Positions 4,875 through 34,769 of a stretch of DNA of 64,000 nucleotides are shown in pieces. Location of the stretch: NCBI GenBank assembly GCA_040954595.2, contig CM082582.2:5998303-6062302 (forward strand), read 5' to 3'. Source of the DNA: Balanoglossus misakiensis (Eukaryota > Animalia > Hemichordata). The translations under genes and the position numbers were made by a program. The notes beneath the pieces were generated by a model. The model was not told the origin of the DNA and did not search any database. It saw nothing but the letters and a program-made list of their open reading frames with translations. Position 1 is the first letter of the stretch; each line of letters opens with the position of its first letter.

Positions 4875-4950
4875 ATGGTGAAAGAAAAGCACCTTGCCAA
4901 GCCTTTGCTTGGGGTGTTGCTCCTCCTGGCGTGTGCGCGAGGAATACAAG
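4875..4950 (+). CDS. Exon 1 of the giant lectin: signal peptide MVKEKHLAKPLLGVLLLLACARGIQ
   Basis: ATG in gtcATGg context, basic n-region, hydrophobic core, and donor AAG|gtaag in phase 1, matching the acceptor at 6350. Confidence 0.8.
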
Positions 4951-7900
4951 GTAAGAATCAACGATGACTTTCACAAACAAAGATCGGTGCCTCTTGTATA
5001 CCACTAGTTTATTTTCCTTTAAACCAGGAATCATTAGTTAATGTGAACCTTCAAGAAACTTTCAGACCATGGCACAGAATTTAAAAAGTCGATTTTTATG
5101 CTTTTGTGGCTAAATATCTTCTTCTATTTTCGAAAATCGAATTACGATATCAACACCGTGATCGCAACCTATCGGCTTACTCGACATTGCTTTATGTTGG
5201 TTTGCTATGCAAAACAAAATCCAAATGCGAATTCGTTGGTCGCGAAATGGATAAAAATTTCACTAAGCCGGTCTTGATTCGAATCGGTGCAGTGTCTTCC
5301 GAGTTCCAATCCCATACGTTTTATTCTTGTATATAGACTTTATCTAGCAAACCAAAAACAATTTTGTATTTCGCAACGCCACATTCCCAATATTACGCGA
5401 ACGCCCCGCACCCACAGATGACATTCTCTCCCTCTCGCTGCGAAGTGCTGTGCTAATGAATATGGTCCGGCATGCGCCAATCGCCACATTGCCCAATTTC
5501 GGGAAGCCACCCAACTTGGAGTCGACCGCAAAAAGTTTGCACCGACTGTTAAATTTAGGGTCCTAGACAATGAGTCGAAGCGACCGCACACGACTGAATC
5601 TTACAGTCTAGATGAAGTCAAGCTTAGAAAAATCGTGTGGTTTACACATGCATGAACAGTCTTCTTACTTTTCGCTAAAACAGGTCGGATGAAAACAATT
5701 CAGTATCTTGCAAAAATATTCGAGAGGTCTCGAATTTATTATGGGATTACTTTCTTTGGAATGTGTGAAGCGTCTGTTTCCCTATTAGAGGGACTACTTT
5801 TCAGTCATAAAAGTTGACTGCTACGGGGGCTACGCTTCCGCCCAGAGAAGAGAGTCTGGGGAAATTGTAGACTCGACAGCCGCATGGGGCTAGAAGGGGA
5901 ATATGTCACAACACTTGATAACAAGTTTAACTTTCATGGTAGTTTAGGTGTCTTCACCCCGTTATCGCTTTTGTACACAACCACCGGAAGCTTGATACTG
6001 CGGCCGGCCACGGCTCTCAGCTGCGAGTGTGGGCCGTAACCTTTGACCCGAGTGAAAGTCTATTGCGCAGTTGAGACCAATATTCATATCAATGCGCGGA
6101 CACTCGTTTTTGATAAACCCACACAAAACTCGATCTCCAACAGTGACAGTGGTGGTAATAATGATGATGATTAGATACTTAATAGAAATAAAAATATATT
6201 TTGACATCGAAAGTGGTAAAATTCGACGTAGGGTCAACGCATATAGTAGTCCTACTCATTAAAATCAAGCGTTTTATCGACAAATCAGCTGGCTTTTTTC
6301 GGCAAATCTTCTCGTTTTTACATTTCACATTTGGATGTTCTCAATTTCAGGACTGCCAGACCCAGTAGCGTTTTGGCCACTTGACGCAGATGAAGGCTTA
6401 CAGGACACATCTGGAAACGGGAACCACGGCACCAACGCCGGTGGCGCCAATCTCATCGCCGATGCCGACGGCACGTTGGCCGGCGCCTATCAGTTCACGA
6501 GCAGCGCCAACTCGTACATCGAGTTCCCCAACAACGGCGCCTACGACACGAGGTACTCGATAACCATGTCGATGTACATATACCCGCAGGGCGTGTTCGG
6601 TCCCACGTTCAACTTCAAGCGCGACGCGTGGGGGGTCCACATGTACAGCGGCAACACCATGCACTTCGTGCGGTTCTGCCAGAGGAACAGCCTGGCGTTC
6701 ACCACGGCGCTGTACGTGAACACCTTGAAGCAGAACGACTGGGTGTTCGTCAGCGCCAGCTACGACCACGACACCGGGATGGCCAAGCTGTGGATCTACG
6801 ACGAAGTTGTGCAGGCCGTGAACATCGGCCGAGTTGAGTTGGCGACGAACTACGAGGCGAGGATGGGAGTCAGAACATACGATGGCAGATATCTGAGGGC
6901 CATGGTTACCTGTATGCAGGTGTACGATAGAGAACTGACACCGTCTGAGATGCGAGAAGCCGAAAGCAAATGTAAAATTGGTCGAAGTATGTATACAGTT
7001 TTATCAGTAGTCTATGTCAATAGGTATTTCACCAATCATATATTGCATCAGTATTGTGTAGTTATCTTTACACGTCTAGAATGTGAAGGAAACTGACCAA
7101 TCGAAGTGAATTATGCATGACAGGGACATTTCAGGCTCTATATCACTATGATCTGAGACGAATATACCTTAAGGTATACTAGTCCCAGCTATGATTCATA
7201 AAACATTAGACAATATTAGATAACAAAATCGCCATTGGGTTATGTCTACTTGCTTGCTTCTGCAAATTGAAATTATTGTACCCCGTACACTGTCCAAGTT
7301 TGTGTAAAGATACATTGGAAAGGGTAATATAGTACATCAGTAAAACGTGCATGTTTGACATAATTATGATTTAGTAAAAGGGAGATAAAAGTAAGATTTT
7401 ATCTAGTATAAACTATAATGCGTGAATCTTTTACTCACCAGTCGAACAACCCTTACCAACTGTGAATTGTAACAACGGGCCGCTGAGAAACCAGATGGTG
7501 CAATTCGACGGGACGGCAAGCAGCTACGTGAAATACTCCAGCGGCGATATCCCTGATCTGGAGAGGTTCAGCGCCTGCTGGTGGGCCCAGACCAGCGCGT
7601 CGGCCAACAACTACCGGACCCACTTCAGCTACATGACGAGCAACGTGAACACCGGCTCCATCTACGTGCGCCGGATCAACAGTCTCATCCTGAACGTCAA
7701 CAACGGCGACGGCGCTGCCACCTCCGTCTCCATCGAGTACGGTCTGTGGCACCACGTCTGCGTCATGTGGTCCAACATCGTCGGGCGCTACCAAGTCTTC
7801 AAGGACGGCGGACTGGTGTACACCACGACCGGTCTGAGAACCTCGCAGACGATCCAAGGCGGCGGACTTCTCGTGCTCGGCCAGCGACTGTCCAGCAACA

Positions 7901-10900
7901 CCGGCAGCTTCTACGGCGCCACCTACTCCTTTCAAGGGAACATGGCGTCCTTCAGCATGTGGAACAAACTTATTGACGAGTCAGATATAGCGGTAAGATG
8001 CAAACGTTAATGATGTATGACAAGCCTCAGGCGGGTCAGAGTTGCAGAGTGGCAACTCACTCAAAACGTCTTCTACTTTTTATATTCAGGTACAGATGTT
8101 TAGGACTAATATGCAAATTACAAAGGGCCTACAAAATGAGGTTAATGTCTTTTGAAATGCTAATTTACAGTCTTAGAAGAATGTAAAATCGAAGTGGCCA
8201 AATACTGGTGTACGATGGGATTATCATTAGCGCGTGTGCATTTGATAAGTCAACAAGCAGTTGCCAATTTGAAGGCCTTCAGAATATGTATTTGAGAAAT
8301 AAACCCAAAATTTATTCTTTGCGACCCCCACAAAACACATCTGCAGTGAAACTTTCGCTGCAATCCAACCTATTTCTATTATTCCGATTAATATAATTAT
8401 ATAATTCTTTATTTAATTATTACAGGCAATGGCATCCAGTGGATGTAACGCAGAGGATTGTGGTAACATTTTGGCTTGGACTAGTTTCCAGACTGATGGC
8501 CTAAACGGTGTTGAGACTGAACGTTCTACACTAGTGTGCGGTATGTTCAAAACTGTCGACACACTTTTTATTTGTTTCTATTTTTAATGTATTGGATTGT
8601 ATATTTTCTTTGGAATCAAAGCAGACGACCATATGATATGCGCAACAAACTTATATGTTACGGTTACCTTTCTGTACTACAAACACACAGGTTTTGTAGA
8701 AAAAAATATGGATTTGAAATACGTGGGTCTTTGACTAAAAAGCAAGGCAGGATATAGTAGGTGCTAAAGATGTGTAGACTTATTCGGTTTAATACATTAA
8801 CTCAACAGAAGACCGCGTGGAAGGATGCGCAGGTGGGGCCTTTCAGGGCAAAATGTTAAACATGGACAACACTGGCAGCGGTTTCAGCTACGCGCAGTCG
8901 TTCCAGTCCATCCCAGACATGAAGCAGTTCACCATGTGCTGGTGGGTTCGCAGCACGGACACCACTACGTCCAAGTACCTGATGACCTACCGCTCGTCCA
9001 ACATCAACACGGGCAGCATCTACGTCTACAACCCCAATAACGTGCAGCTGTACGTCAACAACGGCGCCGCCACCGCCAGCGGCATCGCCGTCAACTACGG
9101 CATCTGGCACCACCTGTGCATGACGTGGGACTCGGCGGACTCCGGCCGATACCACTACTACAAAGACGGCAACATGAGGTACACGTCGTACAATCTGAAG
9201 ACGGGCCAGACTATGCTGGGAGGCGGGACGCTGATGATCGGCCAGTGGCAGGCGTCGGTCGGGAGTGGACTCAGCAAGTCGTATTCCTTCAATCACGACG
9301 TCACCGAGTTCAATATCTGGAGTGAACTTCTGGATGCAGAAAATATTGCAGTAAGAGCATTTGGTTTGCTTGCACAAACATCACATATACGCATCACACT
9401 CTATAAACACCAAAGATTTATGTTAATCAAATGATTGGGTTTACAGTCAAACATCAGCGTGTGGTAGTTTTCAGTTTTTTGTTAGCAATTTTTTTCTTGC
9501 CATACTTTACTTGACACACAAACCCATTAGGCCTACAATACAGAAATTAGGACTACAAAACCAGTAGAAAATTTCGGGATTTTCGTCGGTTTCCAACTTT
9601 TGCATTTGGAAAGTTACTGTATTGCTCATTTACTTATTTTTGTATATTATTCCCCGCAGCAAATGGCTGAGTCTCCGTGTGAGAGCGTCTGCGGAAATGC
9701 TGTGTCCTGGGCCTTCTTCCGGGAGAGTGACATCACAATGTCTGTGACAGCTGAAGATGCCGACATTCAGTGTTGTAAGTGTTGAAGAAAATAAGGGACG
9801 TTTATAGCTGTAACTTTTGGCTTTATTGCCAGTATTTTTGTTCTTTGAATCATACACAATAAATTGTTTGCTCTACTCCAAACAGCATGTCAATGGTACT
9901 TTAACGTAGACGCATTTTGTATCGTTTGGCTATGGTTTAATAATTATTGGATATGCTTTACTCTTGACAACATAGCCGCCGAGGAACCTCAGTGTGATGA
10001 CGGAGCGTACGAAGGCAAGCTCTTCCATTTTGACAGCACATCCGAGTACACCTACGCAACCGTTGACAAAGACTTCAGAGACATCTGGTCGTTCACAAGT
10101 TGTTGGTGGATGCGAACGCAGGACACCAGCAGTACGTACCGCACCATGATGAGCTACTTCGCACTCGGTGACAGTACGAGTCTCGCCAGCATCGCGGTGG
10201 AAAATCCTTACAACATGAGAGTCGGCATCAAGGGAAGGTGGGGCAGCAGCTCCGGAATTGCAGTCAACTACGGGATGTGGCATCACGTGTGTGTCACGTG
10301 GACCTCGGATGGTGGCACGTACCAGATCTACCGAAATGGAGGCCTGGCTTACACACAGACTGGTTACTCGGCAAACAAGATCCTCAGAGGCGGTGGCAAA
10401 TTGGTTCTTGGACAAAAACAGACAACCCTCGGCGGGGGATTCAGTAGAACCTATTCCTACTACGGTGACATGTCAGATTTTAATATGTGGAGCACTGTTT
10501 TGGAATCAGACGTCATCAAGGTACATATAATTGCAAAAATGATTATTCTTGTTATTAGGATATTTTAGTAATTCTGTATACATCATTTAACACTATGAAT
10601 AATTATTTTCAGACAAAACCAATTGATAGCGTTTCTAATTATGAAAGTAAATTGTACACAAATCTGCTGTTAGTTGACCAGACGTATGTTGTATATAGCA
10701 CTGCACATTTGATCAACGCAAGTTTTATATAATTGAGTTGATTTTATCGTGTCCATTATGGCATTGTTTTCAGGGATTTGTTGAAAACCGAGGATGTAGC
10801 AATGGATGTGGTGATCTGGTTTCATGGTACGGCTTCACCAGCAGCAATCTCGAAGAAGTGGAAGTTGAAGATGCAGATGCCGTCTGCGGTAGGTCACAAT

Positions 10901-13900
10901 GTTACTGCATTAATTGTCATAGAACAAGTTTGTGTGGCATGTGAAAGGCAGTCAAGGGCAGCCCTGTGGAGTAACACGCCCTGTACACTAGCTCAGACAA
11001 ATTTTCCCTGTTACACATATGCCACAAGAATGGTTGTAACTCACCACCATATTTGTCTTTTCGATTACCGAGACATTACTTTACAAATACAAGTGCCGCT
11101 AACCATTTCCTTGTGTCTGACACTTGCAGAAGACAGAGCTACCACGTGCGGTGAGGGTACATTGGACGACAAGAAATGGAGTCTGGAAACTTCTTCGTCG
11201 CAGTTCAGCTACGCCGCCGTGAGACAAGAGATCCCCACCATGTCGGCCGTCTCGGTGTGCATGTGGGTGAAGAGTACTGACACGACGACCAGCAAATACC
11301 TGTACACCTACAGAACCTCCAACATCAACACGGGAAGCATCTTCTTGAACAACCCGAACAACCTGCGCTTCTACATCGACAATGCCGCCGGTACGGCGAG
11401 CGGAGTAGCCGTCAACTACGGCATCTGGCACCACATATGTCAGACGTGGACGGCAGAGGGCGGCAAGTACCAGTACTTCAAAGATGGGCGATTGCGGTAC
11501 ACCAGCACCAACCTGCGAACCAACTACGAGATCACCGGTGGTGGCACGCTGATCATTGGACAGTGGCAAGGGTCACAGGGCGGTACCTTCTCCACGGCCT
11601 ACGGTTTCAATGCTGAAATCTCCAAGTTCAACATGTGGAGTGAAGTCTTAGAAGTTGCTGCGATAGAGGTACTAAATATAGTAACTTTTCTTTTAAAGTG
11701 CTTAAAGTTACTATGTTGAACATTCATCTCTGGCTGGGTGTTTGATATAAAGTGTGGCTTCTGCGCATCTCCAGATATCACACTTTTAAATTACGGGATT
11801 CGAACACGGAAGGGCCAAGAACGTTGAGGGAGTTGGTTACTTTCTTGCACAGTTCAGTATTATTCTGGAAATAACTGCTTTGTTTCTTTACACAAAAGTT
11901 TACTGATTATTCCCAACTAACGGATTAAACATCTGTGCCTACAGGGTATGGTTGAAGAACCATGTGGGTATATATGCGGTGATGTCGTATGGTGGTCCTA
12001 CTTCAGGGATGACGATTTGGCCAATATAGACGTTGATGATCATGGTCTACAGTGCGGTAAGTAAAATAACTGAGAAGTTAGTGTTACATTCTAAAGAAAA
12101 ACGTGTGTGCAATTTGTATAACCATGTTGGACACACCAGAGCAAAGTTATGACGTGTATTGTTTCATCTACAGAGGAAGAAGAATTGATCTGCGAAGACG
12201 GGCCATACACCAACAAGACCTGGTCGTTCGACAGTACATCTGAATACACCTACGTCACAGCGCCTACTGAGTTTTTAGACATGTTCTCATTTACGGCCTG
12301 TTGGTGGATGAGAACCAACGATGTGTCCGGACAGGCCCGCTCTATCTTCACCTACTTTGCGCCCGGAGACAACCCTGGAAGTATTCTGGTGCAGACAGCA
12401 AGCAGCCTGAGAGCTTGTATCAAGAATACCTGGGCTTCCCCCTCCGGCGTATCGGTGACCTATGGCGCCTGGCACCACGTGTGCGTCACGTGGACCATGG
12501 ACGGCGGCGTGCAGGAATTCTACAAAGACGGCAGTCGGGTTTTCCAGCAGTCGAACGTGAGGGCCAATCAGATGTTGAGAGGCGGCGGAAAGCTCATCAT
12601 TGGTCAACGACAAGCAAGTGTTGGAGGTGGATTCAACAGGGCTTATTCGTATATTGGCGATTTGTCCGAATTCAACATGTGGAGCGAAGTCTTGATGCAG
12701 TCCAAAATCCAGGTAAGACTGATAGCGTACAAGGCAAAAATGTGTCATATAGATCCAGCGTTTACCTACATAATGATACCTATCTTACAATAAGCTCTGT
12801 AAATATCAGCTCTGACAAACGTCTCCAAATTCGTTGGTAACTATATCTACCGCGATGACCCCTCTAATACAAATCTTCCACTACAGGGTTTTGCGCAGAA
12901 CCGCGGCTGCGAAAATGGCTGTGGAGACTTACTCTCTTGGTCGGAAATAACGTCGTCTGCCCTAACGGAAGTAGAAGTCACCAATGCAGATTCCATGTGT
13001 CGTAAGTTTATTTAATGTGCTCTTCTCTTGCCCAGTAACTACAATGAGCTACAATGAGCCATAAAGATTGTCAAGTAGTGTCAAAGTTAAGGGTTTTCGT
13101 GTCTTTCCTTTGTGTCCATTACTGTAAATACCGTGTATCTTAAGTTAATGAAGTGTGTTGCTTTATGTTTAAGAACCAAGAGTTGACTGCGAAGATGGCG
13201 ACGGTGGGGAATTTGATGACAAAGTGGTTGGAATGGACAACTCTGGTGACTACAGCTATCTGTCGTCCTTCCAAACGATGCCCGACATGACCGCCTTCAC
13301 CATGTGCTGGTGGCTCCGCAGCAGAGACACGACAACGTCCAAGTACCTCATGACCTATCGCTCGTCCAACATCAACACGGGCAGCATCTACGTGTACAAC
13401 CCGAACAACGTGCAGCTGTACGTCAACAACGGCGCGGCGACCGCCAGCGGCTTGGCGGTCAACTATGGCCTGTGGCATCACCTCTGTATGACCTGGGACG
13501 GCGCCGACGTCGGCAGATATCACTATTACAAAGACGGCAACATGAAGTACACGTCCTACAACTTGCGGAACACCCAGACTATTCTCGGGGGAGGCAGTCT
13601 GCTGATTGGCCACTGGCAGGGATCCATTGGCGGCTCCTTGAGCAAGAGTTACTCGTTCAACCACGATTTGACCAAATTTAACATCTGGAATGAAGTCTTT
13701 GACCAAGAAGCAATAATGGTTAGTAGCACTTTGATCCTCTGGGGGGATTCGTGAACAACTCGATCTGTGTAGACACACAGTTTCAGTGAGTTCGATATCA
13801 CAGCAAAACATTGTTATTTGATTTCTATACAGAACATGGCGAATTCCCCGTGCGATGTCTCTTGTGGAAACGCTATTTCTTGGCCATATTTCCGTTCAAG

Positions 13901-16900
13901 CGACATATCTTCAGCTGTTACAGTGAAAGATTCTGACATCCTATGTGGTAAGTGTTTAAACGATTGTTTGAGAATGTATTTATTTATTTACTTGTGGCAA
14001 CTAATTATATCATGTGTGATATACGGTTTTCTTTGAACTGTCGATTACTGTGTATGTCACTGTGTGTAGAATGTTGTGTGTCCAAAAACGAGACTGATTT
14101 GCATATTTCAGCTCCTGAGGAACCCGAATGCGATAATGGCGAATTTGAAGACAAGGTGTGGAAGTTTGACAGCACATCCGAGTACACTTACGTCACTCTC
14201 GAGAAAGAGATCCGCGACATCTGGGAGTTCTCCTCCTGTTGGTGGATGAGGACCAAAGACAGCAGCAGTACAAACCACGCCGTGTGGAGCTACTTCGCCC
14301 AGGGCGACAGCGTGGGCAGCATATTGGTGGAGAACCCGTACAACCTGCGCGTGGCCATCAAGAACAGCTGGGGCAGCAACTCGGGCATCGCCGTCAACTA
14401 CGGCATGTGGCACCACGTGTGCGTCACGTGGACGACGGAAGGCGGCCTCTACAAGATATACAGAGACGGCGGTCTGGCGTACCAGCAAGGCGGGAAATCC
14501 ACCAACACCGAGCTGAGAGGGGGCGGGACCGTGGTGATTGGACAGAGGCAGTCGCAGCTTGGAGGTGGCTTCAGCAGGAGTTATTCCTTCTACGGAGACA
14601 TTTCAGGCTTCCAGTTCTGGAAGAACCTCATCGATGAAAGCGATATCAAGGTAATTCAGATGTCCTAGACTGGTAGTTGTCGAAATGACGACAATTATTA
14701 GAGATTGTTTAACCATAACAAACCCTATAAAACCTTCTGAGTCCCTCCAAATTCAACTCACACAAATGGTGGTAACATTAGTTCTACTCCCTTCATATAT
14801 ATGTGTCATTTTCTCGTAAATCACTTACTGATTGGCCGTAGCAATTGCATGCGAGCTGCTCATTCATTGCGCAACATCCGTTCGCATCCATTGTACGAAT
14901 AGTGAGGGTCCAAATTCTGAAATTTGCTTTCTTGTTATTGGTATTCAGAGCTTTGTCGAGAATCGTGGCTGCGAAAACGGCTGTGGTAATATCCTGTCTT
15001 GGGCTGAGTTCACCAGTGATCATCTCACAGAGGTCGAAGTTGAAGATGCTGAAGCAGTGTGTGGTGAGTATATTCCGTGGTATTTGTGCTTTTCCACAAA
15101 CATTATATGGAGACATATACATATATATCGTGACATTATTGTGACTATGTATGCAATGAGAAAATATACAATATCATAACATTGTGACCGTGTATGCCAA
15201 TAGAACAATAAGCTCTCCTCGTAATATCGGAGATTGCGACTTTTTAGCTGTCCTCATAAATGGGAATGAGATACATGAAGACTTGTGCACATTTTGGAAG
15301 TAACCGGAACATCACGTTTCCTTTCAGAACCACGTGTCACGTCGTGCGGAGATGGCGAGTTCGACGATTCAGCGTGGACGCTGGAGACGTCATCATCTCA
15401 GTTCAGCTACGCCGCCATCAGACAAGAGATCCCCACGATGTCGGCCGTCTCGGTGTGCATGTGGGTGAAGAGTACTGACACAACGACCAGCAAATACCTG
15501 TACACCTACAGAACCTCCAACATCAACACGGGAAGCATCTACCTGTACAACCCGAACAGCCTGCAGTTCTACATCGACAACTCCGCCGGTACGGCCAGTG
15601 GAATAGCGGTCAACTACGGACTGTGGTTCCACGTGTGTCAGACGTGGACGGCGGAGGGCGGCAAGTACCAGTACTTCAAAGATGGGCGATTGCGGTACAC
15701 CAGCACCAACCTGCGAACCAACTACGAGATCGTCGGAGGCGGCACCCTGATAATTGGACAGTGGCAGGGGTCGCAGGGCGGTACCTTCTCCACGGCCTAC
15801 GGTTTCAATGCTGAAATCACCAAGTTCAACATGTGGAGTGAAGTATTGGAAACTTCAGATATCGAGGTGTGTACTTTACCAGACCGTTACCGATAAGGTG
15901 GCGAATAATCTAAGCGTGCCTTACTGTTTATGGGAGATATGTAGCAGTAGACGTATGGCATGAGGACATCTCTTCAACCCCTCTAATTTGCATATTCCAA
16001 CATATGGTCTAAGTCTATGGCTGTCTTCTAATAACCATGTGGTGGCGCTAATTTTTCGGGTGGCCACCCGATTGCAAAATCGTACTGGGCAAGATCCCCA
16101 CTTTCCATTGTAACTGTGGCTATAATTGCATAGGTTGCCGCTTACCTATTATCCACACTGTTCTTTTACTTAGGCTATGGTTGCAGAGCCTTGTGGACAC
16201 ATGTGTGGGAATGTTGTTTGGTGGTCCTACTTCAGATCTGACGATATAGCCAACATTGAAGCTGGTGAACACGGGCTTCAGTGCGGTAAGTAACATCCAA
16301 CGCCCCAAAACGCCTCACAATTTGTACAACGGCCCCTATTTGGACCTCATGCGAGAGAAACCACGGCCATCTTGTATCTAGCTCGTACGCAAGCTCTAGA
16401 GTGCCTTATGGGTAAAAATAATGTTTATCAACAAAGGCTAAATCGTGACGATACCCGCCTTTTAAAGAATTTATATTACAGTCAGTCGAAGTATTATATT
16501 CCTGTTTTCTTAAATATTTGGTATCTCACGTGAAATAACTTCTTTCCGATTACAATTTACAGAGGAAGAAGAGGTGATATGTGAATCGGGAGCATTTACA
16601 AACAAGACGTGGGCGTTCGACAGCACCTCCGAGTTCACCTACGTCACAGCGCCCGCCGAGTTTGTCGACATGATGTCCTTCACTGTCTGCTGGTGGATGC
16701 GATCGAACGACGTCTCCAACCAAGGGCGGGCGTTCTTCAGCTACTTCGCGCCGGGCGACAGCACCGGCAGCATCCTGGTGCAGAACCCGAGCAACCTGCG
16801 GGCCGCCATTCTGAACTCGTGGGCGACGGCGTCGGGCGTGTCGGTGACCTACGGCGTGTGGCACCACGTCTGCGTGACGTGGAGCGCTGACGGCGGCCAG

Positions 16901-19900
16901 CACGAGTTCTACAAGGACGGCAGCCGAGTGTTCACCCAGCTGAACTTCCAGACCAACAAACCCATCAGAGGTGGCGGCAGAGTCGTCATCGGCCAGAGAC
17001 AATCCACGGGTGCCTTCAGCCGATCGTACTCGTACATTGGCGAAGTGTCAGATTTCAACATGTGGAGTGAAGTTCTAATCGCGTCTAAAATACAGGTAAG
17101 CCCAAATTCTGCGCAGTATACTACCATCAAAGAGTTTCCTGTACTTGTCAGTAAATGTATTTCACGTTCCGAAAAAAACACCTTTCTATAGAGTCTACAA
17201 ACTTAAGATGTGAGTGGTGTATGTTGGTGTTACCCAGTAAGGTATCTACAACGCAGGCAGATTCAACAAGTCTTTGGTACTCTATCTGAACAGTATGTCT
17301 ATACCAGAGGAGAAGACCGAGTTTCTAATTATTTTCAAAAAGACGAGCATTTCTCTCCTTTCATCCATTCTTCCTGCGAACATCTATTCAAGTATATATC
17401 ACGAGTTTCTCAAATCACATTTGTTCAGGCATTTGCTGACAACCGTGGCTGTGGAAATGGTTGCGGTGATCTGATCTCCTGGTCGGCATTTACATCATCC
17501 GATCTAACAAGTGTCGAAGTCGAGGATGCCGACGCAGTCTGCAGTACGTATTGAGTTCTCGTTGTGTCTATGAACTTCATTTTATGTACACAATTTTCGC
17601 TTAATTTGATATACAGTACATCAGACAAAGATCAAATGACTTGACAATAAAAACTACAACATTCAGTGTCGACGTTTGCAATAGACCATATCCAGAACGC
17701 CACGAGATCGTGCGAGATCTCGTAATGAGCGGCAAACCATCTATTGATACGTAGGAACAGTAGACGACCAAAGCATAACCCACAATAAACGACTATGTGA
17801 ACCTCTCTTTATATAGAACCGAGAATTTCCGACTGTGAATCGGACGACGGCGGCGAGTTCCACAACATGGCGCTCGACATGGACAACAGCGGCGACTTCT
17901 GTTTCGCCGAAGCCTTCCAAGTGATCCCGGACATGTCCAAGTTCACCGCCTGCTGGTGGATCCGCAGCACGGACACCACGACGGCGAAGTACCTGATGAC
18001 GTACCGCTCCTCCAACATCAACACGGGCAGCATCTACGTCTACAACCCCAACAACGTGCAGCTGTACGTCAACAACGGCGCCGCCACCGCCAGCGGCATC
18101 GCCGTCAACTACGGCATCTGGCATCACCTGTGTATGACCTGGAACGGTGCGGACAGCGGACGATACGCCTACTACAAAAACGGCCACATGAGGTACACGT
18201 CGCACAACTTGAGGACCAGTCAGACCATTCTGGGGAGTGGAAGCTTGCTGATTGGCCAGTGGCAGGGTTCGGTTGGCGGCACTCTCAGCAAGTCATATTC
18301 CTTCAATCATGAAATGACAGGGTTTAACATTTGGAGTGAAGTTCTCGATGCTGAAGATATATCGGTAAGATAGTAGTTGTTATCAGGTCAGATGAAAATA
18401 CCAAATGGAATTCCTCGTCGGCGAAGCTTCTGAATCATATAAAATCAATAAGAAAATCAATGCTAAGACATACAGACACACTTTTGGTTCAAGTTCTTAT
18501 GCTATATGGGAAATACAATACACGTGATTGTACGCCATGCCTCACTTCATCTTTATTACAACACAGGCGTTATACGGTAAGCCGTGTGATTCAGCGTGCG
18601 GTGATGTCGTATCATGGCGATTCTTCCGGATGGATGACGTCACTTCAGCTGTCACCGTCAATGATGCTGACATTCAATGTGGTAAGTATAAAGGAAGTCC
18701 CTTATTTGACCAAATCATTTGCAAAAAATGAAATACACACATGCATATCCGCAATCTATGTAAATATGAATATGTACACATTTCCAAGTTAATAACTCAA
18801 GCCAGATCATTGCTATGCACAGTGTATATCTTCTACAGCAAACATGCATGAGGCAGGCGTAGCTCACTCTTTTCGTAACGTTTACGCCATTGCTTGGTTT
18901 TACATTGATTTTCCTCTCCATTTTAGCCCCAGAAGAACCGGTTTGCTCTGGAGGCACCTTTGAAGACAAGATCATGGAATTTGACAGCACATCTGAGTAC
19001 ACGTACGCAACCGTTGACAAAGACTTCCAAGACATCTGGTCGTTCACAAGTTGTTGGTGGATGCGAACACAGGACACCAGCAGTACGTACCGCACCATGA
19101 TGAGCTACTTTGCACTCGGTGACAGTACAAGTCTTGCCAGCATCGCGGTGGAAAATCCTTACAACATGAGAGTTGGCATCAAGGGAAGGTGGGGAAGTAA
19201 CTCTGGAATTGCAGTTAACTACGGGATGTGGCATCACGTGTGTGTCACGTGGACCTCGGACGGTGGCACGTACCAGATCTACCGAAATGGAGGCCTGGCG
19301 TACACACAGACTGGTTATTCGGCAAACAAGATCCTCAGAGGGGGTGGCAAATTGGTTCTTGGACAAAAACAGACAACCCTCGGCGGGGGATTCAGTAGAA
19401 CCTATTCCTACTACGGTGACATGTCAGATTTTAACATGTGGAGCACTGTTTTGGAATCAGACGTCATCAAGGTAATGAAACACCCTTTTCATAAGTCCAG
19501 CGCCCTCACATAGGCCGCCATCTTGAATTTGAACCCAGAGCGAGGCCAATGGTTAAAAGTTGACCAATCACATGAAGAATGTTTCCCCATTGGCCTCGCT
19601 CTGAGTTCAACTTCCTGATGGCTGAATGAGGGCGCCAGACTTATTAAAAGTGTGCACATGTATTCTCATTGATTTTGTTCGTGTAAATGTTGTAGACCAT
19701 AGATTTATGTCAAACCTTAACATGTCACATTGTCACATTCAACTGACAAGGAACATTTTCTGGATACTAGATTGTATAGTTCTTTTGCATTTCAGGCTTT
19801 TGTGGAAAATCGTGGCTGCGAGAACGGTTGTGGTGATCTTGTTGCTTGGGCAGACTTCACTGCCTCTACCATCACTGAAGTTGACATTGAAGATGCCGAT

Positions 19901-22900
19901 GCCGTCTGCGGTAGGTTCATTGTTATGTTGCACATAGAAGTCGAATGTCATTTAATTCTGTTCTAAAATCGTTTAATAATACGCGTTATAATTAAAATAT
20001 GTCTCAAAACAGTGTTCAATTTCTGTCGCATTTAACTGTGTGCGATCTTTTTCTCAACACAATTTTGCGAACAGAACCCAGAGTGGAGACGTGCGGGGAT
20101 GGTGAGTTTGATGATGAAGCTATCACCTTTGAAACTTCCTCGTCACAGTTCAGCTACGGAACAGTGAGGCAGCAGATCCCCACGATGTCGGCCGTCTCGG
20201 TGTGCATGTGGGTGAAAAGTACTGACACAACGACCAGCAAATACCTGTACACCTACAGAACCTCCAACATCAACACGGGAAGCATCTTCTTGAACAACCC
20301 GAACAACCTGCGGTTCTACATCGACAATGCCGCCGGTACGGCGAGCGGAGTGGCCGTCAACTACGGCATCTGGCACCACATATGCCAGACGTGGACGGCG
20401 GAGGGCGGCAAGTACCAGTACTTCAAGGACGCGAGACTGCGATACAGCAGCACCAACCTGCGAACCAACTACGAGATCGTCGGAGGCGGCACCCTGATCA
20501 TTGGACAGTGGCAAGGTTCCCTCGGGGGCACGTTCTCGACGTCGTATGGTGTCAACGCCGACATTACCAAGTTTAATCTGTGGAGCGAAGTTTTGGACGA
20601 AAGTGACATTGAGGTGAGTGCGCACGATTTATCGCCAGTCAGCAGACGAAGGGGGCATGGTAACTTTCTTGGGATACTCCGGCCATATACAGTAGTGTCA
20701 ATATCAGTTGTCAGTTCAAAGGCCAGTTTCTGACTGTACAATCAACATACGGGGCTCAACCTAACCCCAGTCAACATTCTGTCTCCCTGGTGTCAAAATG
20801 TACCACAAGCGCCATCTCTTCAGCAAAATTTAACCCTACACAAATGTAACATATTGTAACGTGTTGACCTATATCCCATGTTATTCATTCACGTCCAGGC
20901 AATGGTCAATGCGCCCTGCGGACACTTTTGCGGAGATGTTGTTTCTTGGTCGTATTTTAGATCGGATGACTTTGCCGGAGTTACAGCAGAGGCCCATGGC
21001 TTACAGTGCGGTAAGTGCAAACAGTGCAGATATCGTACTTTATCCGCCTATACAGCTAAGTTCTTTTTGGGTGTTATCAACGATGAAGAGAAAAATATAC
21101 AATAAAAACACACTGATTTATCTTGCCTTGGCTTATGCAAATATATAGCTTGTCAATTCAGATGGCATTGCTATTTGGAAAAAGTCAATGTAACGTATAG
21201 GTTGTCTTGGATAACATGCAAAGTGAATCACACCCTGTGACGAATTTATAACAGTTGCACATTGCTGTGAATCAATTATAGAATTAAGACATTGAACTAT
21301 TTGATGTTAAATATGTGTTTTTTTCCACGTATTGTACAGAGGAGGAAGAATTGATTTGCGAAAACGGGCCATACACCAACAAGACCTGGTCGTTCGACAG
21401 TACGTCTGAATACACCTACGTCACAGCGCCTACTGAGTTTTTAGACATGCACTCATTTACGGCCTGTTGGTGGATGAGAACCAACGATGTGTCCGGACAG
21501 GCCCGCTCTATCTTCACCTACTTTGCGCCCGGAGACAACCCTGGAAGTATATTGGTGGAGAAATCTAACAGTCTGAGAGCTTGTATCAAGAATACCTGTG
21601 CGTCCCCTTCCGGCGTATCGGTGACCTATGGCATTTGGCACGCGGTCTGTGTCACGTGGACCATGGACGGCGGCGTGCAGGAATTCTACAAGGACGGCAG
21701 TCGAGTTTTCCAACAGTCGAACGTGAGGGCCAATCAGATGTTGAGAGGAGGTGGAAAGCTCATCATTGGTCAAAGACAAGCAAGTGTCGGTGGTGGATTC
21801 AACAGGGCTTATTCGTACATTGGCGAATTGTCAGATTTCAACATGTGGAGTTCCGTGCTTTTGCAATCGAAAGTAAAGGTAAATCAGAATAATTAATGGA
21901 TAAGCTTACAGTAAAGTAAATATTTCTATTTGATACGTTACAGTGCTATATTATCTTAGTGTATTGTATTTCAAACATCGTTTCTCAAGACTAGCTTACG
22001 ATACTGGTTTGTGTATAGGTGAAAGTCATTGTCGAGTACTCAGAAATCAGAACGAACTTGCTTTGTAGAAACGTGCACTATTGTCCTGTCCACATACTGT
22101 TTTGTTTATGCTTACTTGCAACTCCGAGCCTAAATACAGTAACCTTATTGTCAACAACTCCTTTCTTGACGTTATCCGACCACGTGGCTCTAATCACACT
22201 ATACCATAACGCATAACGAATGGTTTTGATACTTCTGGATTGTTTTCTCGTAGACCTTTGCAGCAAATCGCGGTTGTGACAACGGCTGTGGAGATTTGCT
22301 TTCATGGTCAGAAATCACTTCCTCAGCTCTGACCGAAGTAGACGTTAATGACGCCGAATCTGTTTGCCGTAAGTGAAATATTTCAGACAAAAGTTTCACG
22401 TGTTAGGTGGTGATTCACTCATCCATCGGTATGGAAACAGTGAATGGTTAATTATCAAATGCATTAGATCGAGAGAAAAAAAACCACTTAGGAACCGACA
22501 TCACATTTTCTGGGTTGATTTCAACACAGGTACGACATTCATAGAAACGTATACATCGTTAGATGTTACATAGGTAAAAGTATCATATGAGTGAATTGCC
22601 CGTACATATTATATGTGTATGTACTTTTTCTCTCAGGACCCAGACCGACAACTTGCGAAGGCGGAGAATTCGAAGGGAAGGTACTGGACATGGATAACAG
22701 CGGAGACTACAGCATCACCCAGAGCTTCCAAACGATGCCGGACATGTCGCAGTTCACGATGTGCTGGTGGGTGAAGAGCGAGGACAAGACCAGCTCCAAG
22801 TACCTGGTGACCTACCGATCCGCCAACATCAACACCGGCAGCATCTACGTCTACAACCCCAACAACATGCAGCTGTACGTCAACAACGGAGGGGCGACCG

Positions 22901-25900
22901 CCAGCGGCTTCGCGGTGAACTACGGCATCTGGCACCACGTGTGCGTCACCTGGAAGGGCGCCGACACCGGCAGGTACCATTACTACAAAGACGGCCGCAT
23001 GAGAATGACCTCGTACAACCTCAAGAACAGCCAAACGATCTTGGGAGGAGGCACCCTCATCATTGGCCAGTGGCAAGCGTCCGTTGGAGGCGGCCTCAGT
23101 AAGAGTTACTCGTTTAACCACCAAGTGACTAAGTTTAACATCTGGACCGAAGCTATGGACAGTGACGCCATTGCTGTAAGTCGATACTTCTACTTGCACG
23201 TCCATGTACTCCAGACCTATACAAATATGGACCTATGCTCCACAAAATTTGACTTGTGTATTCTCGCGATATCTAACCAATTTCTTTCAGGCCATTTGCA
23301 AACTTAAGTGAAAGCTGCAAAATAAAACAACCACTGCATTGACGTATTGTATACCCTTGCTAAGTGCTACTACGATTGAATGTTTGTATTCCAACGACGA
23401 CTGTCTTCTTATTTTATCCAGATTCTCGCCAACGATGCTTGTGATTCATCGTGCGGAGATGCCATTTCCTGGTCCCATTTCCGTCCAAGCGATATTTCCT
23501 CTGCAGTAACGGTGATGGACTCTGATATTCCATGTGGTAAGTAAATGTGGTGAAGTTTAAATGATCTTGACATCGTGTTGAATGAGAGTTTGAACAATCA
23601 ATGGGTTCTTTCACCAAATGCTTTAACCATGGTTGTGCAGGCACATATTCCATCCGTAAGGGGTTTACTCGCCAAATGAAACCCACTAATATTGCAGACC
23701 ATTTGCAAAACATGAAAAATAGCAAGCTGGTGATCACTGGTTTCGGTTTTAGTGTTATACACAATTTCCTTTCAAAGTTGCATTTTTTCAGATCACGCGC
23801 CTTGCTTTGAAAAAACAGACAAGTTTGGAAAATGAGTGTATGCAACTAGATTGAAGTAATGAATGTTTGTTGACCCCTGCCACTTTTTTTTTACAAGAAT
23901 AGCGCCCTTAATCCATCGCTTAAGTTATGATGTACTCACAATTCGAAATGGCGTGAATTCTCGCGTACTTATACACCTATACTCTCCTGTAACCCTTCTG
24001 GACAGGACCCCAACCATCGCTTTGCTCCGGGGGTGACTTCGAAGAAAAGTCGTGGTCCTTTGACAGCACCTCCGAGTACACCTATGCGACGACATCCACT
24101 GAGATCCCCGACTTGTGGCAATGGAGTGTCTGCATGTGGACAAAGACCGACCAGACTACCAACGCGGCCCGTGCCCTGATGAGCTACTTTGCATACGGCG
24201 ACAACCCCGGCAGCATCCTGCTGGAGAACGCTTACAACCTCCGACTGTGCGTGAAGAACTCCTGGGGTACGTCGTCTTCGGTCGCTGTCAATTACGGTCT
24301 GTGGCACCACGTGTGCGAGACCTGGACAGCAGACGGCGGCGTGAACAAGTTGTACAAGGACGGTTCCCTCGCGTTTGAGCAGGCTGCCTTCAGAACGGAT
24401 CAGGTGATACGGGGCGGCGGCGCTCTTATCATCGGTCAGCGCCAGGGCAGCATTGGCGGAGGCTTCAACAGGGCTTACAGCTATATTGGAGAAATTGCCG
24501 GCTTTAACATGTGGAGCAGTGCTCTAGCCCTGGAGGATGTCAAGGTAAATTTTGGTTTACTGAATTTTCAATGTGTACAGGACTGGGTCTTTCGAAAGTG
24601 AAATAAGGATATAAGCGTTGAAGAGACATTTCAGATGGAAGTGCTGGTTACACGGCGATTTTGGCCAAATGTCTCACTCACCTGCAAGTGCAAAATTCAG
24701 TGATTTTTATAAACACACTATTATGTTCTGTGCAATTTCGAACTAGCTTCATAGTCTATCTCCTTTACATTCTACTCCTTAGTTACTGGCTGCAGATCGA
24801 GGCTGTCAGAACGGCTGTGGTGATCTATTGTCGTGGTCAGAATTTGTTTTAGCTGACGTCATTGAAGCTGACGTTGCCGAATCAGATGGTGCCTGTGGTA
24901 AGTATTCAAAGATTCTGCGGATTTACAAAAAATGGTTCCATATTCTCAAGGATGCATGCTTAACGTTTCTAAACCACCTTGACAGTGACACAGATACATG
25001 TACGTCATAAAGTACGATACGGGGATCAGTATAAACATGTAGTCCTGTTTGGCATTTTTTTTCTGGCAGAGTGGATGTCTATGTTGTCTGTGTATATAAA
25101 CAGACATGGAAACATTTGTAATACTTGTCTTCAAAAAGCACTTTCTTTTTGAAATGGCACCTCCCGGAGAGATGTAAGACAGTTCAACTCAAGAAGACCC
25201 ATTTCATCATGTAAATATAGCAACAGACGATTTTTTACCATTTTCACTCTCCAGAAACACGACCAACCGATTGTGACGATGGCGAATTCCACGGCAAAGC
25301 GTGGTCGTTCGAGAGCACCAGCACGACCGAGTGGAGCTTCGTGAACGCCTACAAGGACATTCCGGACATGACGTCGCTGACGGCTTGCTGGTGGGTCCGA
25401 ACCACCGAGACCAACGCCAACAGGCATTTCTTCTATTACGCGACGAGGGGGATTTCCACCGGAAGTTTCTACGTGTACAACATGAACAACGTGCAGATGG
25501 GCGTTAACAACCAGGCGGGCAGCGCCAGTGGCGTGTCTGTCGGCACCGGCTTGTGGCACCACGTGTGCGTCACGTGGACCTCTGAGCAGGGTACCTACCA
25601 GTACTTCAAGGACACGTCCCGCGTGTTTTCCTCGTACAACCTGAGGTCCGGCCAGACTATCCAGGGTCACGGCACCCTGGTCATCGGCCAGAAGCAGGGC
25701 GCAAACGGAGGACCGTTCACGAACGGATACCAGTTCTTGGGTGAAATATCTTCCTTCAACATCTGGAGCGAGGTTCTGGACAGTGCGAAACTTCAGGTGT
25801 GTTAACTGACGTCCACTTCTGTTCATTGTGTAAAAGGGATTGGACCTTAGTAGAATCTTATTGAAATGATTTGGCTGTATGCCATTTATCATCATTGATA

Positions 25901-28900
25901 ATTTCGTCCAAGCTCGCCGACTTCGTTCCTCAAGAATAACTTATTTGGAGTGTACTTATAGTGTCTATATAGTTTTTCGAGTTTGCCTTGCTTCATCTGC
26001 CAAAGTATATCGCGTCAATTTTGTGGAGAAACACAAACGCACGGTTGAGATTTATAGACTTAGCAAGCTGGGTTGTTCAGCAGCGTTCTCAAGTTAACGC
26101 CAGCAATTTTGTAGGTTAACTCTATATGAAGCTAAACATTGCCATACAATTAACAGACCAGATAGACGACGACTTGCTTTGCAACAACTGTGAGACACAC
26201 TACCCGATGTAAACTAGCACATATGTCATGTTTTCTGATATAATTCCATTATGATCTTTTGAACAACCGTAGGGTGTTGCTGAAGATGGCTGCGAGAGTG
26301 ACTGTGGGGATATCATTTGGTGGTCATACTTCCGGTCGTCAGACTTGCACGAAGTTGATGTCAGTGAAGCAGATATCCAGTGTGGTAAGAGATTGGTGTT
26401 TATGAGTATCCTGAGACAAATATGAGTAGTATACGTGACTATTTGGGCACTCATTATATATTCATATATTCATATTATATATTCGTATATTCATATTTTC
26501 ATAATTATAATAAGATGCAGATATGTTTATATAATGAGTGCCCAAATAGCCACGTATACTACTAATATGTTAGACTTGACTCCTGCCTCAGAGGACTGAT
26601 CGTAATGACAGGTTTCACTGTACAATTTCGGTAACACCTCTACTCCTTTGAACACAGAGCCGAGAATAGAGACCTGTGAGGGCGGCGAATTCGAAGACAA
26701 GAAGATTTCGTTCGACAGCAGCGACGAGTTCAGCGTGGTCATGGCGTACAAACAGATCCCCGACATGACGGAGTTCACCGCCTGCTTCTGGATGCAGACC
26801 GAGGACCTGTCAACGGCAGCCCAGACCATGTTCAGCTACTGGACCCACTCGCCGAACACCGGCAGCATCTACATGCGCTACCTCTACCAGCTGCAGCTGT
26901 GCGTGCAGAACTCCTGCGCGTCGCACAGCAACATCGACGTCAGGTACGGCCTGTGGCACCACATCTGCGTCACCTGGTCCAGCACCAACGGCGAGTACAA
27001 GTACTTCAAAGACGGCAGTCTCAGTTACTCGGGAAGCAACCACAAAACCGGCACGACCATCCTGGGAGGCGGGACGCTGGTTCTCGGTCAAAATCAGGCG
27101 AGCGTCGGAGGAGGCTTTAACAAAGGGTACTCCTACAAGGGTGATCTGACCAACTTCAATATGTGGAAGCAGGTTCTCAGGAGTGATGATATTAAGGTAA
27201 GGTTAACTGTTCAGTTGTACAAAACTGGTTTGCATTGTAACTTCGACACATCAAAGCATAACTCTATTACTATACAGTGTTATATAAGGAGTTGCCCTAA
27301 GTACAGTGGCTTGAGTTCCGGTTCGAGCTCAGACTCTGGTCCAGCCTGGACTGGCTGTTCCTTTTTAAATAAAGTCATCGGCATTTAAATCTATACACAC
27401 GCGTCCCCGTCTCTTCGCATCCACCGACACCCCGGCCAGACTCTCGAAGGCTTCCCAACACTTTTGGGAGACACGACACAAATATATATTCGCCCCAAAT
27501 CTAACAAACACTGACTAAGATTATTGCTTACTCATATATCATATATTAATATCAAACACTTTTGATACAGGCAATTGGAACTACTGGCTGCGAGAATAAC
27601 TGCGGAAATGTTATCTGGTGGTCATACTTCCGTTCTGGTGATGTTGGAGGTGTAACCGTAGAAGATTCAGAAGTAACGTGTGGTGAGTGCCTACCCGATT
27701 TCATATTGATCATCTTCCCCCTAGCATTGTCACTTGTTGCTGTAATGAAAACCATGCTACCTGGAGTTTGTCTGCATGCGTATATACAGTGAAAGTTGTC
27801 TTAACTATAGTACCGCATCTGTCGTTTTGGACAAGGTCTGGGATTTGCCACATGGTGAAGTCTTTTTCATTATTCTTCCCCAGCTGAAAGACCAAGACTG
27901 TGCAACCAGGGCGAGTACATTGGCAACGTCTGGAGATTCGGGCAAGGAGACAAGTTTTCACACGCATCTGTGTACAAAGAGATTCCGGACCTGGAGGAGT
28001 TCTCGGTCTGCTGGTGGATGCGAACGGACGAGCCCAGCGGCGACCGCTACATCATGAGCTACTACCACCGCACGGCGGCGCGGGCGATCGAGATACACAA
28101 CCCGAGCAACCTGCAGCTGCTCGTGAACGGCGCCAACGGGGCCGCCATCGGCCTCGCCCTCAACTACGGTCTGTGGCACCACGTGTGCATCACGTGGGAA
28201 TCCGCCAACGGCAAGTACGAGTACTTCAAAGATGGCGAGCTGCAGAAGACCGCCACGGGTCTGAGGTCCGGCCAGGAAGTCACGAGTGGCGGCACCATGA
28301 TTATTGGCCAGTACCAGACACGTGTGGGCGGTTCCTTCAGCACCAGTTACATGTACAAGGGTGACCTGACCAGTTTCAATATGTGGGGAAGTATTCTGGA
28401 TGGTGATGCCATCAGGGTGAGTTTTTTCAACTTTTGTCCATCAATAAAAAATGACAAATTCTCGACATTGTGAATTTTGGTCATTTTGGCATTTCGTATC
28501 TAAGAAATGACCAGCTGCAGAAGAACGTGAACCTTGTAAGATGCATTTCTGGAGGCATGAAGCTTTTAGCCACCTCGACAACGTTTAAGATCGTTTTTAA
28601 ATATGCTTTGCTTTCTTTCTTAGGGAATGGCGTCTGACATTTGCCAAACAGAGTGTGGCGATCTTGTACCTTGGTCCTTCTTCAGATCTGGCGATCTCAA
28701 AGATGTGACGGTGTTGGATGCTGGTGATGCCAACCTTGACTGTGGTACGTTAGAGATTTTTAGACATAATACGCCTTTTTCACGAAGAGGGCGCCCTTTC
28801 AAAACATGGCGTCGTCGCCAAGCAGACGACGTGAAAACGAGGCCAGTGGATCACAGAGTACTGCCCGAGCTCGTCTGGTCTGTTTGTGTATAAAAGTTGC

Positions 28901-34738: not shown

Positions 34739-34769
<31 letters not shown>

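Follow-up and report, generated by a model that had tools for sequence, protein, structure and literature searches.

The stretch of Balanoglossus misakiensis DNA analysed here (the window, 64,000 nucleotides) carries at 4875-47813, on the plus strand like all the parts of it described below, a gene for a long chain of tandem pentraxin modules, and the repeat structure of that chain is the subject of this report. The gene model was assembled from stop-to-stop frames and splice sites; it has 70 exons, every intron is GT-AG and there is no internal stop. The predicted product, of 7,152 residues, begins with a putative signal peptide and a LamG domain, continues with 26 pentraxin modules of two exons each, and ends in a mucin-like stalk followed by seven F-type lectin domains. 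The first exon (4875..4950) contains the ATG and an N-terminus that, judged by its residues, resembles a signal peptide; no clear transmembrane helix was found in 19-residue hydropathy windows along the whole protein (maximum 1.54, top windows at residues 6-11). The exon at 6351..6986 encodes the LamG/ConA-like domain (PF13385, 35.7 bits). Module 1 (7442..8540), single-copy and 56% identical to module 1 of the acorn worm Ptychodera flava, precedes three tetramers with modules of classes A, B, C and D in this order: tetramer 1 at 8809..13001 (module 2 at 8809-9774, 3 at 9976-10888, 4 at 11130-12056, 5 at 12174-13001), tetramer 2 at 13174..17543 (module 6 at 13174-13947, 7 at 14112-15063, 8 at 15328-16285, 9 at 16563-17543) and tetramer 3 at 17817..22368 (module 10 at 17817-18681, 11 at 18927-19910, 12 at 20075-21010, 13 at 21340-22368). 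Module 14, a further A-class module designated A', lies at 22637..23536, the eight divergent modules 15-22 at 24006..33728, and the single-copy modules 23-26, which have one-to-one orthologues (54-73% identity), at 34128..39016. An acidic linker exon and a mucin-like exon with 11 PEVTE repeats (39305..39883) lead to the seven F-type lectin (F5/8C) domains and the stop codon (40025..47813; PF00754/PF22633).

The modules, one per 0.94-1.5 kb, have two exons each, a large one of 518-551 bp (phase 1 to 0) followed by a small one of 103-121 bp (phase 0 to 1). The exception is module 24, whose large exon is interrupted by an additional intron; this intron, in phase 0 at 35469-35858, is the sole one of its kind in the array. 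Each module has six to eight cysteines, and the net charge is acidic in 25 of the 26. By sequence and predicted fold the product is a pentraxin-domain protein, yet it fails the tests of a classical pentraxin of the CRP/SAP type. On the one hand, PF00354 scored 61.7-81.8 bits, above its curated cut-off of 25 bits, in all four large exons tested (of 26), a PDB sequence search with the modules placed NPTX1/2 at the top (E=8e-27 and 1e-26), and the fold predicted for orthologue modules matches NPTX1 (6ype) with a template modelling score (TM) of 0.86 and a root-mean-square deviation (rmsd) of 2.2 Å, and SAP and CRP with a TM of 0.82. The pattern HxCx[ST]Wx[ST], which we take to be the family signature, is complete in 13 of the 26 modules, and the shorter HxCx[ST]W is present in 22. 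On the other hand, after alignment of the modules to SAP and NPTX, the Glu position of the GQEQD loop is acidic in none of the 26 modules, the Asp position is acidic in one and the downstream Gln is kept in none; the loop acids and this Gln are presumably the pentraxin calcium ligands, and all 26 modules would thus be calcium-less pentraxin domains. Within modules 2-15 the even ones have GQ[W/Y]Q at this loop (GHWQ in module 6), and the odd ones have GQ[K/R]Q. The pentraxin fold is common to the modules and to NPTX1/2, SAP, CRP and PTX3, but classical pentraxins have one domain per chain, assemble into non-covalent rings and depend on calcium (calcium-dependent binding and the pentamer define pentraxins in the part of PMC3791837 that was available), whereas here 26 domains without the calcium-site Glu are covalently linked. 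PF00754 and PF22633 pass their cut-off in both F-type exons tested, and the total number of copies is seven. In these domains the His of the fucose triad, given as His...RxDx4[R/K] in the accessible part of PMC5712786, is replaced in seven of seven, and RxD...[R/K] is retained in six.

The original prediction placed a hierarchical periodicity of 2, 4 and 8 modules at 8809..25796, that is, from the first base of the large exon of module 2 to the last base of the large exon of module 16. Parity and lag statistics were computed for modules 2-15 (the three tetramers plus 14 and 15) against modules 16-26. Within modules 2-15 mean identity rises from 37-38% for odd lags to 53% for lags 2 and 6, 69% for lag 4 and 76% for lag 8, and with lags divisible by four left out, same-parity pairs exceed opposite-parity pairs by 15.5 points (p=0.001, 5000 permutations). 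The parity effect is absent in modules 16-26 (-0.3 points, p=0.62), and a cruder test of lag-2 mean identity was not significant (p=0.15). The two proposed parity motifs are borne out: TTSKYL.TYR.SNINTGSI occurs exactly in five of the seven even modules 2-14 and, allowing conservative changes, in all seven, FDSTSEYTY...YFA.GD occurs exactly in six of the seven odd modules 3-15 and in all seven under relaxed matching, and neither is present in modules of opposite parity or in the remaining 12. Nine alignment columns split even from odd modules across three species; three belong to the C-terminal segment and three to the loop that matches the first calcium loop of SAP in the alignment.

The period of four is confirmed as well. 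Lag-4 mean identity is 71.7% against 48.7% in shuffled order (p=0.0001), and in a tree of the modules A (2, 6, 10, 14), B (3, 7, 11), C (4, 8, 12) and D (5, 9, 13) are clades with bootstrap values of 97-100, recovered separately from cores and from flanks, so that the proposed subtypes, three times ABCD plus A, are well founded. A and C together also form a clade (99/97). The tree thus clusters modules 2-14/15 by position modulo 2 and 4, and modulo 8 only partly. Modules 16-26 are more divergent, as had been noticed, with 39-40% identity at every lag, but they are not uniform: modules 15-22 retain a weak lag-4 pattern (p=0.02; the tree joins 16-20, 17-21 and 18-22), which weakly suggests a four-module block older than that of 2-14, and modules 23-26 are single-copy with orthologues.

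An octamer period had been proposed from the closeness of modules 3-11 and 5-13. These pairs are indeed 89% identical each, and 66-70% identical to modules 7 or 9. The other lag-8 pairs named do not show an excess: 4-12 (81%) is below 4-8 (84%), and 2-10 equals 2-6 (72%). When positions were permuted within classes, the lag-8 excess was 9.5 points for whole modules (exact p=0.037) and 12.5 points in the large-exon core (p=0.025), and it was not significant in the flanks (4.8 points, p=0.12) or in the small exon (5.0 points, p=0.10).

The near-identity is confined to certain parts of the modules. The tract in the large exon of module 3 (10011..10523) is 95.1% identical in DNA to 18962-19474 in module 11, and that in module 5 (12169..12684) is 92.8% identical to 21335-21850 in module 13; the tract in module 4 (11177..11653) is 91.2% identical to 15375-15851 in module 8, at lag 4, and 89.1% identical to 20131-20597 in module 12, at lag 8. 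Exchange within the C class is of equal strength at lags 4 and 8. Along the pairs 3-11, 5-13, 4-8, 4-12 and 8-12 sliding identity is mostly 83-100% over the central part of the large exon, and it falls to 56-79% in the small one. The same holds for silent sites, of which 13-33% differ in the large exons of these five pairs and 46-72% in the small exons: 20/155 and 12/26 in 3-11 (p=2e-4), 25/153 and 21/29 in 5-13 (p=5e-9), 28/146 and 13/23 in 4-8, 38/145 and 15/21 in 4-12, and 48/145 and 16/24 in 8-12. The contrast reaches p<0.01 in six of 15 same-class pairs and in one of 63 cross-class control pairs, where the mean silent difference is 0.51 in the large and 0.61 in the small exon. By the run test, silent identities form clusters in five of 20 pairs (p<=0.0006). 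Among the 51 introns compared, no alignment between two of them is longer than 33 bases (best E=0.009). Modules 7 and 9 bear no trace of recent homogenisation. The core and flank boundaries were set after inspection of the data, and weight is placed on the split between large and small exon and on the run test. One duplication cannot produce adjoining exons that differ three- to four-fold in silent divergence, whereas recurrent conversion of the longer one can; the confinement of near-identity to the large exon points to gene conversion, not to a recent doubling. The first exons of F-type lectin repeats 2 and 4 (41391-41627 and 43869-44105) are likewise 95% identical and their second exons 66%, so the exon-limited pattern is a property of the DNA of this gene and not of pentraxin geometry. 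F-type lectin repeats 1-4 alternate with period 2.

Relatives were collected by a profile search of 1.84 billion representatives (best 150 of 10,895) and by follow-up searches. Among the matches listed, orthologues are present in two acorn worms, Ptychodera flava (XP_070535667.1 / XP_070535677.1) and Glandiceps talaboti (LOC144453094), and the models used (P0151, P0003, P0155) are uncharacterised RefSeq models. The Ptychodera model P0151 has the module order 1, A, B, C, D, A', 23, 24, 25, 26, and the Glandiceps model P0155 the order A, B, C, D, A', 23-26. Both share with B. misakiensis the order, 54-73% identity, an alternation of linkers, the Pro/Thr/Glu stalk and the F-type lectin tail; as modelled, they differ in having 9-10 modules and four F-type domains against 26 and seven, and modules 15-22 are absent from them. 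P0151 also lacks the N-terminal LamG domain. Both models may under-count modules: the Ptychodera isoform P0003 has a second D, 95% identical to the first in the core and 89% in the small exon, as a young duplicate would be, and the Glandiceps fragment P0030 has an additional A module. Modules 15-22 look older than the species split, so that their absence from both models could mean loss, omission by annotation or fast evolution.

The shared order A-B-C-D-A' makes the tetramer ancestral, older than the split of the acorn-worm lineages. The proposed history of successive doublings can be kept for the steps from one to two to four modules (even and odd, then A/C and B/D), which are old because both orthologue models carry A-B-C-D-A'. 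A clean step from four to eight is not supported, because there are three tetramers, two of the five pairs at lag 8 lack an excess, and the near-identity, at silent sites too, does not extend beyond the large exon. The core identity of modules 7 and 9 to 3/11 and 5/13 (65-69%) is like that of the latter to other species (66-73%), so that either the extra tetramers are old or modules 7 and 9 have evolved freely. At the protein level the small exon of module 14 is 84% identical to Ptychodera A' and 50-71% identical to its paralogues in the same genome, while its core is 58% identical to the former and 71-79% to the latter; in this module the joints appear to follow position and the cores to follow species. 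The four A modules of B. misakiensis cluster together (Shimodaira-Hasegawa-like approximate likelihood ratio test, 94).

The linkers offer a separate view of the period of two. Between the terminal cysteines they have six residues in 22 of 25 cases, and all modules are joined by only five to six residues within one 26-domain chain. In modules 1-16, Arg occupies linker position 3 in all eight odd-to-even linkers and in none of the seven even-to-odd ones; the Arg-free linkers are mostly acidic, and the same alternation is present in both orthologues. AlphaFold2 models of three- and five-module orthologue fragments, built from alignments of 19-22 sequences, gave domains with a predicted local distance difference test (pLDDT) of 83.9, and linker pLDDT fell below 50 in three of three even-to-odd and none of three odd-to-even linkers. 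The predicted template modelling score (pTM) was 0.69 for three modules (rough unlinked range 0.34-0.42) and 0.51 for five (0.28-0.37), above the unlinked range in both, with the five-module fragment below a closed assembly. The models are a hint that odd-even pairs are connected through hinges. Ptychodera modules B and C folded as separate chains gave interaction scores (ipSAE, interaction prediction score from aligned errors) of 0.00 and 0.01 against a mark of 0.34, in a run with no alignment and no folded controls that counts neither way. The structural part of the original prediction therefore splits in two: the alternating pair has modest predicted support from linkers and pTM, and nothing in the linkers or in AlphaFold2 pTM supports a period of 4 or 8 or a ring of that symmetry. 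Its argument that an even period does not fit a five-fold ring is a weak contrast, since PDB titles list a tetramer, hexamer and octamer of the PTX3 pentraxin domain and a heptameric Limulus pentraxin, and a 26-domain chain needs no ring.

Taken together, we consider it probable that old duplications of a module pair and a tetramer block, followed by in-register gene conversion limited to the large exons, shaped what is likely a secreted, calcium-less pentraxin chain. The pair would have been duplicated into A-B-C-D before the acorn-worm lineages split, and the block B-C-D-A' would then have been multiplied through unequal crossing-over; as every module begins and ends in phase 1, the frame is preserved whatever whole number of them is added. 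The introns and the 114-bp exons may have been too divergent or too short to pair, so that conversion would have persisted only between those exons of about 540 bp, within one class, that had stayed similar. Modules 7 and 9 may have dropped out of the exchange, which would leave 3-11 and 5-13 octamer-like. Odd and even modules are predicted, with confidence evenly poised, to form odd-to-even pairs with acidic hinges between them, and such pairing would favour even-numbered duplications.

Several observations weigh against this explanation. The lag-8 excess of whole modules is nominally significant, and the small exons of 5-13 (79%) and 6-14 (71%) show some lag-8 excess of their own. The pair 9-13, counted as not recently converted, has the large/small-exon contrast too (p=0.0035), and the clustering of silent identities in 3-11 reaches only p=0.051. 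Parity is lost beyond module 16, so the whole chain needs no strict alternation. The Glandiceps and Ptychodera A' modules cluster by position and not by species, so homogenisation is not general, and the cross-species tests use only proteins, from automatic gene models that are apparently incomplete. The AlphaFold2 runs were on orthologue fragments and yielded no coordinates or predicted aligned error, and a pTM of 0.69 equally fits three loosely placed domains or one tight pair.

It could instead be argued that doubling from one to two, four and eight modules, with loss of one tetramer, built modules 2-14, and that conversion merely sharpened a lag-8 likeness already there. This history would account for modules 7 and 9 standing apart; it predicts that 2-10 need not match, as observed; the tree joins 3-11, 5-13, 6-14 and, weakly, 4-12; and the small exons of 5-13 and 6-14 are above their own lag-4 values. 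We nevertheless hold it to be rather unlikely. The lag-8 excess is not significant in the flanks and the small exon, the small exon of 3-11 is no closer than that of 3-7 (71% both) and that of 4-12 is below 4-8 and 8-12, and one extra deletion is required. Modules 6 and 14 are both near the ancestral A' (76% and 84%), which a lag-4 repeat of B-C-D-A' predicts equally.

Selection for a ring or helix of 4- or 8-fold symmetry, with modules i and i+8 in equivalent places, might maintain the periods, and the order A-B-C-D kept in three acorn worm lineages, the difference of 16 modules to the Ptychodera model, in blocks of four or eight, and the PTX3 tetramers and octamers of the PDB titles would agree with it. 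Selection on the protein leaves the shared silent sites unexplained, the F-type lectin exons show the same pattern, the five-module pTM falls well short of the 0.74-0.89 expected for five confidently placed domains, and solved chains with several LamG domains do not match the arrangement (rmsd 15-30 Å), which makes this reading quite improbable. That the near-identical cores are an artefact of assembly or polishing is very improbable, since, although repeats collapse easily and the two DNA runs listed by a search of sequencing runs, which listed none of RNA, come from one sample, perhaps the assembly's own source, 42 of the 545 large-exon positions separate module 3 from module 11 (15 within the core), read contigs built independently from short words lead from the different flanks of these two modules into a single core contig, both runs cover every one of the 30 bins of 8800-25800, and the Ptychodera D copies and Glandiceps A copies are alike to a similar degree within their genomes. 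The allele sites in the read contigs (26 of 40 listed) are mostly silent; three in the core of module 3 match module 11, but they lie in a collapsed contig, where ongoing conversion and collapse are indistinguishable.

The processes in the preferred history, block duplication followed by conversion, are known ones. According to the accessible part of PMC1553488, domain repeats commonly expand in mid-array by multi-domain units, most often of two, and higher-order units of seven (nebulin), four (fibronectin-III) and five (cadherin) occur; multi-domain duplication units, mid-array expansion and homogenisation are shared with the pentraxin array. Concerted evolution of domain repeats is described as known and rare (PMC5100051, in part), and conversion between yeast duplicates as needing a few hundred similar nucleotides and being often limited to coding sequence (PMC3924837, in part). 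What sets the pentraxin array apart is that conversion would act inside a single gene, keep to the register of the four-module unit and affect one of two exons only. No higher-order repeats or concerted evolution of this kind in pentraxins were found in the literature searched, nor a description of a 26-module calcium-less chain in the pentraxin and hemichordate literature, of which the supplements and Bishnoi et al. 2015 may list such architectures; the word pentraxin is absent from the main text of PMC4729200, PMC5100051 and PMC13554239. The chain represents an apparently undescribed acorn-worm protein family.

Among the matches listed, 26 modules make the longest tandem pentraxin chain (the next have 10, 9 and 9). 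Other tandem pentraxins are Saccoglossus LOC100374304 (nine modules), Ptychodera XP_070546223.1 (five), Glandiceps LOC144437069 (five) and the coral Oculina LOC144638230 (eight); unlike the B. misakiensis modules, to which they are 25-40% identical, these four proteins retain GQEQD, and the alternation of two classes is absent from the three of them whose matrices were computed. Among the GQEQD-bearing tandem-pentraxin proteins of acorn worms and a coral (P0004, P0006, P0008 and P0156), P0008 has five almost identical modules and is a further case of homogenisation. P0005 and P0007 are unnamed, cysteine-poor proteins from ENA contigs, in which 7-8 pentraxin-like modules follow one another, several of them with GQDQD; they look bacterial. 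The Xenopus pentraxin fusion protein PXN1-XENLA also joins an F-type lectin to a pentraxin domain (PMC5712786, in part), but it has one pentraxin domain, whereas here 26 precede seven F-type domains without the His. Neurexin-1alpha and the laminin LG tandems, which gave the top Foldseek E-values, carry several LamG-fold domains per chain; they are 9-14% identical and not superposable in arrangement.

What the protein does can be proposed with less confidence. A large secreted scaffold of mucus or extracellular matrix, multivalent and binding glycans or partner proteins without calcium, is a suggestion whose chances we see as evenly balanced; it would be the likeliest role, given that the acorn worm epidermis is highly secretory (PMC13554239, in part). 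In the sequence itself, the signal-like N-terminus, the lack of a clear transmembrane segment and the mucin-like stalk are the features that bear on secretion. An immune or gamete role, by analogy with other F-type lectins (PMC5712786, in part), may also be considered. More speculative, and in our view doubtful, is a single-chain hetero-pentraxin filament, in which the calcium and ligand face would have been rebuilt in two complementary forms, with Arg plus Trp/Tyr in even and Phe/Asp plus Lys/Arg in odd modules, rigid odd-even pairs would alternate with acidic hinges, selection for the pairing would permit expansion in even numbers only, and exon-limited conversion would keep the faces uniform and the joints positional. 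The residues of the calcium site have two kinds of replacement, which alternate along the chain. If the odd-even pair is a real structural unit, the pentraxin fold would be used here in a new way, as a covalent polymer and not as a ring. Silent sites and exon boundaries separate a structural-looking lag 8 from a possibly structural lag 2, which is a caution for histories of repeat proteins based on dot plots.

A few further features of the window are noted. Contig depth is 10-40 times the local level in intron-bearing bins at 9367-9933, 16171-16737 and 19006-20139, which suggests short high-copy mobile elements. At the joints 12235/16679 and 12495/17031, contigs of about double depth link module-5-like and module-9-like pieces; the genome may have more D-class modules at other places, or repeats may have led the assembly to join these pieces. 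Upstream of the pentraxin gene, O-methyltransferase exons lie at 261-1903 (+; PF00891 in both exons tested). Downstream, a 355-codon open frame rich in K, E, R and S (53899-55708, minus strand), with a nearby exon that by eye looks like ankyrin, suggests a convergent gene, and 62492-62980 (+) encodes a YqaJ-like recombinase/exonuclease domain (PF09588, E=1e-7), probably derived from a mobile element.

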